This document shows, one piece after another, positions 75-45,835 of a stretch of DNA of 64,000 nucleotides. How positions within the stretch are numbered: position 1 is the first letter of the stretch; every line of letters starts with the position of its first letter. The stretch is from IMG/VR virus record IMGVR_UViG_3300032213_003144, positions 106,426 through 170,425 of that record; one strand, 5' to 3'. Position numbers and translations under genes: made by a program. Under the pieces are notes generated by a model. That model did not search any database. It had not been told where the DNA came from and saw nothing but the letters and a program-made list of their open reading frames with translations. The stretch is from a virus.

Positions 75-602
75 TTATTCCCCTTTTTTCTCGATTGGCG
101 TCCAATCTACCTTGGCTAGGGCATCCATGTTCTGTGCCGGCCAATTAAATCGTGGTTTACCTATGTGGGCCAAGCCCATCTCCTGCAGAACCCACGCGTC
201 ACATCTGTCATCAGCTCCAGGATTTTGCCAAACAATTCCAGTACGTGCTGATATAGACGAAATCACTTCATTTTTTGATGCGTTTCCTTTTCCGGTTGCA
301 AACTTTGCTCGACACGTTGGGGGTATCGTTACGTAGGGAATTCCAATTTGCCACAGCAGTAGGCGAATCACCCCACCGAGCTCTCCAATAGAGAAAGCCT
401 GACCGCTGCGTGAAGCAAACGAGTAACCCTCAAGCATGACGGCCTTTACCTCGTATCTATTGATTAGGGATTCTATTTCCCTTTTTACTAGCCAGAGTCT
501 TTCTGGTCCAGACTTATTAAAAGAGATAACTCCAGATTCGTCGCCAAACGCATACCCAGTTGATGTTAGGGATAGGTCTAGTCCAAGAAAATCGTTTATC
601 AC
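75..602 (-). CDS. RuvC-like Holliday junction resolvase
   Basis: N-terminal LGLDLSLTSTG, central LEGYSF, FATGKGNASK and late DRCDA acidic motifs typical of phage RuvC-fold resolvases. Confidence 0.8.
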   Translation of the reverse strand: MINDFLGLDLSLTSTGYAFGDESGVISFNKSGPERLWLVKREIESLINRYEVKAVMLEGYSFASRSGQAFSIGELGGVIRLLLWQIGIPYVTIPPTCRAKFATGKGNASKNEVISSISARTGIVWQNPGADDRCDAWVLQEMGLAHIGKPRFNWPAQNMDALAKVDWTPIEKKGE

Positions 603-624
603 AGTGACATACTAACCTAAAAGC

Positions 625-660
625 AAAAACCCACCGAACATCCAGCGAGTTCGGTGGGTT
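625..660 (-). terminator. Intrinsic terminator (minus strand)
   Basis: Inverted repeat AACCCACCGAAC...GTTCGGTGGGTT, followed on the minus strand by a U-tract (plus-strand AAAAA). Confidence 0.65.
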
Positions 661-772
661 AAATTCGAACCGTTTGCGGCGGCTCAGAATCATTGCCGTG
701 TAGGAACACTCGACTCTTGGACCACCGCCTTTCTTCCGTGAAGGGTAGATATCGGCTAGACGAATTAAGGTT
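661..772 (-). ncRNA. Candidate structured non-coding RNA
   Basis: Intergenic and GC-richer than its flanks; minus strand has nested stems (AATTCG/CGAATT, GGCGG/CCGCC, GTGT/ACAC, CTTC/GAAG) directly upstream of a terminator. Confidence 0.35.
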
Positions 773-829
773 AGCACTTATGTTATGCACTAATAAGTGA
801 AGAGCTTTTAAATAATGTTCCACTAAAGT

Positions 830-872
830 AAAAAACGCAAAAGCCGAGTGAGTCTCCCCACCCGACTTTCGC
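830..872 (-). terminator. Intrinsic terminator (minus strand)
   Basis: Minus strand GCGAAAGTCGGGTG-loop-CACTCGGCTTTTGC then GTTTTTT; the G.U pairs only work on the minus strand. Confidence 0.75.
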
Positions 873-949
873 GCCTATAACGGTCCTAAGAATTACAACG
901 ATACACCCGTACTAAATAGTGAAAGTGTTAATTATAAAACTATAAATAA

Positions 950-1291
950 TTATCTTTCCCAGCCATGTTTTGCTAACCCTAAATCAAACGCAAGTTGAGG
1001 GTAATTACCAATTCTTACGTGACACAGCCTGCAAACTGCAAGTACATTTTCCTCATCAAGTATGGAGCCACCCTGAGAGCGTCTGATTATTTCGTGAACA
1101 TCCCTACTGAGATGTTGGTTGTATGTCGTCTTGCCGTCGTGAGTTGCAAAAACTTTACAAGCCTCGCATGCCGGTCTTTCCCTTAGTATTTTTTCAACAA
1201 ACTTACGCCGTTCGACATAAATCTCTTCGGTTTTTGCACTTCTTTTTTTAGGAGGGCCACTTCTCTTGATTGGTTTGTTTCTTCGAATCAT
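950..1291 (-). CDS. HNH endonuclease-family protein
   Basis: CEAC...DVHEIIRRSQGGS...NVLAVCRLCH motif. Confidence 0.75.
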   Translation of the reverse strand: MIRRNKPIKRSGPPKKRSAKTEEIYVERRKFVEKILRERPACEACKVFATHDGKTTYNQHLSRDVHEIIRRSQGGSILDEENVLAVCRLCHVRIGNYPQLAFDLGLAKHGWER

Positions 1292-1319
1292 TGGCGACCT
1301 CTATGCTCATGTTGTTTAC

Positions 1320-1829
1320 CTAGAGTGAATCCTCGCTAATGTCTTCGAATGTCCACTTGTTATCAAGAGTATCCCACAGCGAACGGTCTATCGCCGTATC
1401 TTCTAGGTCAAAATCCCTGAGCATTGCTCTGTGCTTTGCTATTGCTCGCTTGAAGAACTCAACCTGTTCCCAGCCATCGTTTTGCATTTCTTGGCCAGTC
1501 GAAATCATGACAGCAACTTCATCAAGCCTTCTATCAACATGAAATTTGAAGCGTTTAATTCTTGTTGCCTTGGTCTCGTAGTAGGAACCAGCTTCGCGAG
1601 TTAGCTTTGTTCCAGCCCTCCCTAGCGAGCCGTATCGTGCAAGGTCGGACTCTGAGTCAGCCTCTATATCGTCGATTTGAAGTTGGAGATTATTGGATAG
1701 TGCGAGAAGTGCGTCTTTCCATTTTTCCCAGTTCTCCTGCTTCATTAATTCTTTTTTATGCAAAGGTGACAGTTTGTTTTTAACTTCTTCTGCAACCATG
1801 CGCGCAAAAGCATCGTCGTTCGTAATCAT
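1320..1829 (-). CDS. Hypothetical protein
   Basis: 169-aa ORF in a tightly packed minus-strand operon with an RBS-like GGGGA. Confidence 0.7.
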   Translation of the reverse strand: MITNDDAFARMVAEEVKNKLSPLHKKELMKQENWEKWKDALLALSNNLQLQIDDIEADSESDLARYGSLGRAGTKLTREAGSYYETKATRIKRFKFHVDRRLDEVAVMISTGQEMQNDGWEQVEFFKRAIAKHRAMLRDFDLEDTAIDRSLWDTLDNKWTFEDISEDSL

Positions 1830-5188: not shown

Positions 5189-5242
5189 CGGATTTACATT
5201 CCCTAATGTCGTAACTCGTGTTTATAGGCTACTGTATGTTAT

Positions 5243-5443
5243 ATGCCCAAACTGAGCACTTTGTCCAATAAGTTCAAGTCCGTAATAAAACCCAGACTAA
5301 ATAGACGTACGTTCGCTAATCTGTTCATGGTTTCATTTATACTATGTACAAGTATTGGAGCAGGTTTAATATTCCCGCCAGCGGGATTAGTGGTTGCCGG
5401 ACTGACGTGCGGTCTATTTGGTTTATTGTTAGGACTTGAGTAA
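5243..5443 (+). CDS. Small membrane protein preceding portal
   Basis: Two hydrophobic segments; ends 3 nt before the portal start. Confidence 0.6.
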   Translation: MPKLSTLSNKFKSVIKPRLNRRTFANLFMVSFILCTSIGAGLIFPPAGLVVAGLTCGLFGLLLGLE

Positions 5444-45502: not shown

Positions 45503-45835
45503 ATGAATAGCTCTGAAGTATCGGCTAAACCACCAAAGAACGGCAAGTGTCTCGGCTATGACCCAAATATTTTTTTCCCGTTTGCGGAAAAATCCGGAGA
45601 CTCCTATTCGCGGAGTTATGTAAGAGGAAGAGAAAATACGATTCTCGCAAAATCAATATGCAAAGAATGCCTCGTTTCGGAAGAGTGTCTTCAGTACTCA
45701 TTGCTTCACGAACCGCACGGAATCTGGGGTGGCAAAACGGAACGAGAAAGAAAGACTCTGAGAAGAAGACTTGGTGTGTCGCTAGTACCGAAAGAGCCAA
45801 TAAATATTTTGCTCGGATTTAAGTTCGGGGGCTAG
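45503..45835 (+). CDS. whiB: WhiB-family transcription factor
   Basis: C...FFP...AKSICKECLV..EC...HGIWGGKTERER. Confidence 0.93.
   Translation: MNSSEVSAKPPKNGKCLGYDPNIFFPFAEKSGDSYSRSYVRGRENTILAKSICKECLVSEECLQYSLLHEPHGIWGGKTERERKTLRRRLGVSLVPKEPINILLGFKFGG

Follow-up and report, generated by a model that had tools for sequence, protein, structure and literature searches.

A predicted phage-encoded small RNA with a conserved seed antisense to helix 69 of actinobacterial 23S rRNA

Trans-acting small RNAs (sRNAs) of the DicF or RybB type are transcribed from a promoter of their own and consist of a short, conserved, single-stranded 5' seed and a terminator hairpin; trans-acting sRNAs are 50-150 nt in size, and their seeds are more conserved than their scaffolds. 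The predicted phage RNA described here, RNA1, shares this layout (with a predicted promoter), this size and this pattern of conservation. Unlike such sRNAs, whose targets are mRNAs or other sRNAs, RNA1 has rRNA as its only conserved complementary partner, and its perfectly paired seed of 16-35 nt is longer than usual sRNA seeds. The host phylum is not known to have Hfq. Phages remodel translation with proteins, including modification enzymes, phage-encoded ribosomal protein S21, and toxins. Neither Rfam nor the literature searched reports any RNA, occurring naturally in bacteria or phages, that is directed at rRNA through antisense complementarity, and no paper describing RNA1 was found in that literature.

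Small RNAs complementary to rRNA are known from eukaryotes and archaea as snoRNAs (box C/D RNAs and U3), with complementarities of 10-21 nt. The snoRNAs guide the modification or folding of their own rRNA, whereas RNA1 would be directed at the rRNA of a host and belongs to another domain of life; the RNA1 sequence (891-830, minus strand) contains neither of the box C/D motifs RUGAUGA and CUGA, and no H/ACA boxes or partner proteins were seen. Like RNA1, 6S RNA is a small RNA that addresses a core gene-expression machine globally rather than single mRNAs, but 6S RNA mimics open promoter DNA and binds RNA polymerase, whereas RNA1 would act by plain antisense pairing. [quoted passage not shown] PNAs against either site inhibit growth or translation, the 16S-directed type in a Corynebacterium as well (PMC7038079), which shows that antisense oligomers can reach both. 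The MazF-mt3 and MazF-mt6 toxins of Mycobacterium tuberculosis attack the same two neighbourhoods, in free 50S subunits and not in 70S ribosomes (PMC5408214), and the MazF-mt3 sites thus mark both neighbourhoods as already known control points in this phylum. The toxins are protein endonucleases that cut rRNA, whereas the phage elements, being RNAs, would pair with it; in the first of the three lineages described below, RNA1 covers 23S positions 1914-1929 but not the MazF UUCCU site.

RNA1 lies in a 64,000-nt stretch of viral DNA, referred to here as the window, that spans positions 106,426 to 170,425 of IMG/VR record IMGVR_UViG_3300032213_003144. The whole record is 170,425 bp long, is rated complete, and contains no rRNA gene. 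The neighbours of RNA1 are all encoded on the minus strand and include a RuvC-like resolvase, an HNH endonuclease, a Cas4-like exonuclease, a Rad52-like annealase, and the large terminase (Table 1). The terminase is closest to those of Gordonia phages (~43% identity), and no tyrosine or serine recombinase is found in the genome; together with the two WhiB-like genes, these features make a lytic actinophage the most likely identity of the virus, as judged from gene content. Most of the related contigs presumably come from lake metagenomes, judging by the sample series. The RuvC gene has a GTG start 6 nt after a TAGTAT hexamer (614-609) and no Shine-Dalgarno sequence (SD), and its mRNA is apparently leaderless. 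This arrangement of a -10 element followed by the start codon is kept in relatives and recurs at a few other genes, whose mRNAs likewise look leaderless; most internal genes have SDs.

Table 1. Coordinates of RNA1, RNA2 and associated features (window numbering unless a contig is named)
Feature	Position	Strand	Remarks
RuvC-like resolvase, 175 aa	75..602	-	Pfam RuvC, phrog_159, E = 6e-34
RNA2, ~140-nt sRNA (predicted)	620..760	-	-10 TAACCT 773-768; terminator 652-627
RNA2 invariant block AGAAAGGCGGTGGTCCA	718..734	-	invariant alignment columns
RNA1, ~60-nt transcript (predicted)	891..830	-
RNA1 U-tract	830..835	-	ends the RNA, ~61 nt total
RNA1 16-bp hairpin (terminator stem)	835..874	-	arms 874-859 and 850-835, loop 858-851
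16-mer CTATAACGGTCCTAAG	875..890	+	E. coli 23S positions 1914-1929
RNA1 seed CTTAGGACCGTTATAG	875..890	-	invariant columns, 59-sequence alignment; unpaired in consensus fold
-10 element TATCGT (TAnnnT)	898..903	-	T, A and final T invariant in position, 29 diverged sequences
-35-like hexamer TTAACA	926..931	-	alignment of 29 upstream regions; sequence reading
HNH endonuclease gene	950..1291	-	stop 60 nt before RNA1
WhiB-like gene, first	45539..45760	+
WhiB-like gene, second	genome C1:33260..33451	-
Unit with GGGTCAAT-like motif	L227:10880..11010
Unit with GGGTCAAT-like motif	L326:6940..7060
Unit with GGGTCAAT-like motif	L340 ~5240..5380	reverse

The starting point was an intergenic 16-mer, CTATAACGGTCCTAAG, which the initial annotation had assigned to 23S rRNA positions 1914-1929 (E. 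coli numbering). Sequence comparison confirmed this assignment, and the numbering agrees with the known pseudouridines at 1911, 1915, and 1917; the core of the I-CeuI site is the same sequence. The 16-mer occurs once in the window, even when up to two mismatches are allowed, and once in the full record. It is the longest exact match between phage and rRNA in the genome, in which chance matches of 14-15 nt are also present. By our own arithmetic, matches of at least 16 nt are expected by chance at ~0.14 per window, close to the earlier estimate of about 0.1, which was right, and at ~0.4 per genome. An exact 16-nt match is by itself at chance level and not significant; what makes it significant is its conservation in comparative data. 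On the host side, 60 of the 151 sampled Actinomycetota genomes contain the 16-mer; all 23S genes found in them carry it unchanged, and it occurs there only as 23S copies and with no variants (the tally takes in one unpublished genome, G089, and gives the same result without it). The 170-kb genome offers no complementary stretch of at least 10 nt that could serve as a phage-internal target.

On the locally transcribed strand the 16-mer reads CTTAGGACCGTTATAG and forms the 5' seed of RNA1, antisense to the H69 loop and 3' strand and to the 5' strand of H70. The hairpin and T-run that had been noted directly after it are present, and the proposed seed-plus-terminator layout gains support from comparison, since the seed is flanked by a conserved -10 element on one side and by a strand-specific hairpin with covariation on the other. 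The TAnnnT element stands 7 nt upstream of the 16-mer, which places the predicted RNA1 start at ~891/890. Upstream of the seed, the 29-sequence alignment shows neither conserved RNA structure nor a longer conserved transcript, and this, combined with the invariant TAnnnT, indicates that transcription should start at the seed and yield an RNA of ~61 nt. The hairpin has a minimum free energy (MFE) of -32.2 kcal/mol (z = -6.2), and in the MFE fold of the window sequence the stem takes in the last two bases of the seed. Paired bases occupy 99.9% of the alignment cells of the stem, compared with 34-55% when the partner columns are slid, and 9 of the 16 pairs show double changes. G.U pairs account for 199 of 880 cells (~23%), which would be A.C on the other strand; the fold therefore works on the minus strand only, and the selected object is the minus-strand RNA, with the 16-mer as its unpaired part. 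In relatives the 3' arm of the hairpin stays U-rich even where no separate U-run follows it. RNA1 thus combines a predicted promoter directly upstream, a covarying terminator hairpin, and a seed more conserved than its scaffold, the features of a trans-acting sRNA; as predicted from sequence, it is an independent phage gene, and we hold it to be a genuine sRNA with high confidence. Rfam 15 contains no match to RNA1: only four tRNAs in the window reach gathering thresholds, and relaxing the search to E values up to 10 over window positions 500-1400 returned only terminator-like noise below 21 bits.

Upstream of the RNA1 -10 element, a TTAACA or TTGACA hexamer is conserved in position, but at ~22 nt its spacing is unusual and too great for a standard -35 element. 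The segment between this hexamer and the -10 element (904-931, minus strand) has a conserved sequence and may be an operator or an unusual promoter. Neither the segment nor the upstream motif is repeated elsewhere in the genome, as would be expected of a general phage promoter.

Conservation was assessed in loci fetched through the neighbouring HNH or RuvC proteins, i.e., independently of the 16-mer. The 16-mer is intact and on the same strand in 144 of the 160 loci retrieved in this way, most of them with no mismatch, whereas the proteins themselves are just 57-100% identical. In the loci without it, the whole RNA1 unit is missing or the locus is truncated. Only three types of seed variant occur (T14C, A7G, and C8T); A7G and C8T keep the 23S pairing through wobble, and in the T14C clade the pair with A1916 is broken. 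The sampled Actinomycetota are invariant in 23S at all three positions, so compensatory change between phage and host cannot be observed. Altogether, the 16-mer with its hairpin is present in at least 119 IMG/VR contigs and in many metagenome contigs, and across the more than 100 related contigs, which fall into three lineages, it is invariant or differs by single transitions. A search of the cultured-phage collection at the DNA level gave no match, and two Gordonia phages among the nearest cultured relatives are without the 16-mer.

The initial annotation had also considered a decoy or a target for an rRNA- or rDNA-specific factor. These alternatives found no support: the element is antisense to the rRNA and not a mimic of it, and selection acts at the RNA level. 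The same strand-specific G.U covariation speaks against a DNA-level element such as an attP core in rDNA, a cos or pac site, an origin, or a homing site. The 16-bp identity with the host chromosome does resemble an att core, and it coincides with the core of the I-CeuI site, but the genome encodes no tyrosine or serine recombinase, and no RNA1 turned up in a search of 185,579 bacterial and archaeal genomes, in which the 20 matches to the 16-mer have no hairpin and are fewer than expected by chance. A guide RNA for an IscB- or Cas9-like nuclease made of the HNH and RuvC proteins, suggested by the position of RNA1 between the two genes in lineage 1, is hard to reconcile with an HNH distance that varies from 16 to 2821 nt among relatives, with a RuvC that is an ordinary 175-aa resolvase, and with a scaffold that is one plain hairpin; moreover, neither gene lies near RNA1 in lineages 2 and 3. 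The DNA-level and guide readings are therefore largely refuted here and retain a very small probability.

The second and third lineages place RNA1 in other contexts. In lineage 2, the same seed and a long hairpin adjoin an SNase-like gene and a ferredoxin gene, and one contig carries two WhiB genes. In lineage 3, which was recovered by a metagenome scan, the seed is preceded by 12 more nucleotides antisense to 23S rRNA, so that the total runs from 1914 to 1941. Eleven of the 12 additional nucleotides are identical, and the remaining one is a wobble-compatible C-to-T change; 11 identities have a chance probability of ~2e-7. Two sublineages each have a single C-to-T change, at different positions and both U.G-compatible, so the complementarity remains contiguous over 28 nt with wobble-compatible changes only, and a weaker complementarity extends to ~1948 (28-35 nt in all, 1914-1941/48). 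The homology to 23S rRNA ends at a TATACT promoter, whereas in true 23S genes from the same scan the 23S sequence runs on at both sides. The three lineages accordingly show complementarities of 16, ~21, and 28-35 nt, with the 1914-1929 core retained by every one of them, and lineage 2 has the appearance of a lineage 3 form that lost an internal segment. The extension suggests that RNA1 originated as an antisense fragment of a 23S gene captured behind a phage promoter.

Such an extension would not be expected under coincidence, and this bears on another reading of the locus, which takes the 16-mer for a signal bound by a protein or acting in cis as RNA (a nut-like site, a processing site, or a RuvC leader) and its identity with 23S rRNA for an accident. 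A linear conserved box followed by a stem-loop just after a promoter does resemble boxA/boxB, the unit lies upstream of RuvC in lineage 1, and the exact 16-nt match is, as stated above, at chance level. However, the seed, by inspection, does not resemble the boxA consensus, and the unit ends in its own terminator, with the next gene under its own promoter, rather than behaving as a nut site. RuvC has its own -10 element beside the start codon in all classes and is missing next to RNA1 in lineages 2 and 3. The unit is present once per genome and does not head a long operon. Given also the 11 further identities to 23S rRNA in lineage 3, we regard a cis-acting signal as improbable. The lineage 2 and 3 data and the RNA-level covariation together thus disfavour, by comparison of sequences, the cis or protein site, the DNA site, and the nuclease guide alike.

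The check that the initial annotation had proposed, a search for the same 16-mer in related phages, came out decisively in its favour, with conservation in more than 100 contigs of three lineages. Its proposal of an sRNA that could pair with H69 is likewise strengthened by the comparisons and by the antisense match of 28-35 nt in lineage 3. We consider it likely that the seed is conserved because of pairing with 23S rRNA.

A second predicted sRNA, RNA2, lies next to RNA1. It is kept in at least 36 distinct sequences, its internal hairpin and terminator covary, and it has no Rfam match. Its invariant block, AGAAAGGCGGTGGTCCA, is complementary to the 17 nt at the 3' end of actinobacterial 16S rRNA. 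These comprise the anti-Shine-Dalgarno sequence (anti-SD) and the 3' tail; the complementarity includes one mismatch or a bulge of 1-2 nt and one G.U pair. This comparison used the 16S 3' regions of 8 small actinobacterial genomes, without the unpublished genomes G002, G019, and G049; a wider tally of 16S 3' ends takes in these three. The block begins opposite the last nucleotide of 16S rRNA, whose mature end we take to be ...CCUUUCU-3', and the duplex would consequently have a blunt end. Its predicted energy is -23 to -27 kcal/mol (-26.9), compared with -8.7 to -11.6 kcal/mol for ordinary SDs. Shuffled 670-nt regions give a high background, which makes energy statistics against them uninformative. 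The block is itself partly predicted to pair with an upstream pyrimidine stretch. Variants of the block are mostly A-to-G changes opposite U. Of the 79 distinct RNA1 loci whose flanking sequence was long enough, 45 have RNA2 downstream, 6 have it upstream, and 28 have no canonical RNA2 block; RNA2 without RNA1 occurs at five loci.

Other aspects of RNA2 and its vicinity were also noted. A small ORF behind the SD-like block was considered as an explanation for it and rejected: the start codon is not conserved, the region forms a covarying hairpin, and no conserved ORF follows the block. The terminator loop of RNA2 is complementary to the 5' CUAGC of the same RNA (627-760, minus strand), a possible pseudoknot for which there is one compensatory example (L153/L154); CUAG also occurs in the middle of the RNA. 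What follows RNA1 in lineages 2 and 3 is a different structured unit, preceded by a promoter, that carries a conserved GGGTCAAT-like motif together with a long hairpin; these units share no complementarity of 10 nt or more to rRNA.

H69 forms intersubunit bridge B2a and contacts tRNA, release factor, and recycling factor. In 70S ribosomes the 1914-1929 region is buried, and in E. coli H69 is modified, with pseudouridines at 1915 and 1917 and an N3-methyl group on 1915. In the proposed mechanism, the RNA1 seed would pair with host 23S rRNA at 1914-1929, i.e., the H69 loop and 3' strand and the H70 5' strand. Pairing would most likely begin on the exposed H69 loop, which would serve as a toehold in free 50S subunits or nascent 23S rRNA, and RNA1 would then invade the short stems of H69 and H70. 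The predicted duplex of RNA1 with the 23S fragment (16-17 bp) has an energy of -26.9 kcal/mol, compared with -10.2 kcal/mol for the local H69/H70 fold of the rRNA; the modifications of H69 would weaken the 3' end of this duplex. H69 would thereby be withdrawn from bridge B2a and from its factor contacts, so that 50S subunits bound by RNA1 should neither join nor function and would be parked or prevented from joining. In most relatives, RNA2 would act analogously on the 16S 3' end at the anti-SD.

As a whole, the proposal that RNA1 is an antisense RNA acting on H69/H70 of free 50S subunits or nascent 23S rRNA, with subunits occluded or parked, is one that we favour by a modest degree. This degree mainly reflects the reality of the sRNA and its pairing with 23S rRNA, which are jointly rather probable, and is lowered for the unsettled outcome; occlusion or parking, given pairing, is an even call, and the literal product of sRNA, pairing, and occlusion would fall well short of an even chance. 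Sequence comparison shows the anatomy of the gene, selection at the RNA level, the pattern of conservation, and the complementarity; from these we infer the transcription of RNA1, its binding to rRNA, and the consequence for the ribosome. Many phage genes carry ordinary SDs, and only some of the genes that come first in their units, including RuvC, look leaderless. Because the phage needs ribosomes and has many SDs, a global block would hurt the phage too, and this cost would have to be solved by dose or timing. Further points against the proposal are the burial and modification of the target, the pair broken in the T14C clade, the 28 of 79 RNA1 loci that have no canonical RNA2 block, the invariant host rRNA, and the last two seed bases that fold into the stem. 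A broader proposal is that RNA1 and RNA2 form a protein-free two-RNA system for seizing host ribosomal subunits, with RNA1 derived from a captured 23S fragment: RNA1 would mask H69/H70 of the 50S subunit, RNA2 would cap the 16S 3' end and anti-SD of the 30S subunit, and the two might reprogram initiation (e.g., toward leaderless first cistrons), park subunits, or shield them from rRNA-cutting toxins. The two-RNA proposal is put forward tentatively, at somewhat below even probability.

The same rRNA pairing could also have a protective aim, with RNA1 and RNA2 shielding free subunits from suicide or defence ribonucleases of the host, or from decay. Decay starting at the 16S 3' end and at the subunit interface would be blocked, and ribosomes would be preserved for the phage. 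The cuts of MazF-mt3 fall exactly in 23S helix/loop 70 and the 16S anti-SD, and H70 is cleaved by MazF-mt6 when in 50S subunits but not when in 70S ribosomes (PMC5408214); in addition, RNA2 pairing begins at the very last 16S nucleotide and leaves a blunt end, and lineage 3 RNA1 spans the UUCCU site at 1939-1943. The seeds of lineages 1 and 2, however, end at 1929-1934, short of the MazF site, the opening of H70 would expose that site and not hide it, and a shield on H69 or the anti-SD would block the function of these regions as well. We consider a protective role unlikely.

Unlikely to a similar degree is a role confined to precursors, in which RNA1 pairs with nascent 23S rRNA and stops the folding of H69/H70 and assembly, or makes a substrate for host RNase III, whose cutting of the duplex would lead to host shut-off and nucleotide recycling. 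The target is at its most accessible in nascent rRNA, which is unmodified and unfolded. The lineage 3 duplex of 28-35 nt would be long enough for RNase III, but a 16-bp duplex would be marginal, and a search of the phage for an encoded RNase III found none. A stop in assembly would also gain little within a short lytic cycle.

With pairing to H69/H70 as the preferred reading, the comparisons suggest that freshwater actinobacterial phages may act on host rRNA directly with RNA. Binding of RNA1 to H69 would constitute a new route of host takeover or counter-defence and would make RNA1 a natural counterpart of antisense antibacterials aimed at H69 and at the anti-SD. Since Mycobacterium, Corynebacterium, and Streptomyces all have the identical target sequence, RNA1 might then also provide a simple, portable tool for switching ribosomal subunits off in Actinobacteria. 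The three lineages, with their 16, ~21, and 28-35 nt, would document the possible birth of an sRNA from a captured rDNA fragment.

Some contigs contain the 16-mer in settings other than RNA1. In ten metagenome contigs (L319, L334, L338, L341, L377, L378, L408, L410, L417, and L422) it lies within an apparently conserved coding stretch, with the flanks GCACC.CA ... AA and no hairpin. These occurrences are an unrelated coding coincidence, and the 16-mer can evidently arise elsewhere. In true metagenome 23S genes (L331, L333, L342, L398, L391, and others), the antisense strand has a purine and not U at the position directly 5' of C1914; this is variation at 23S position 1913, in genes that were caught only through the scan pattern.
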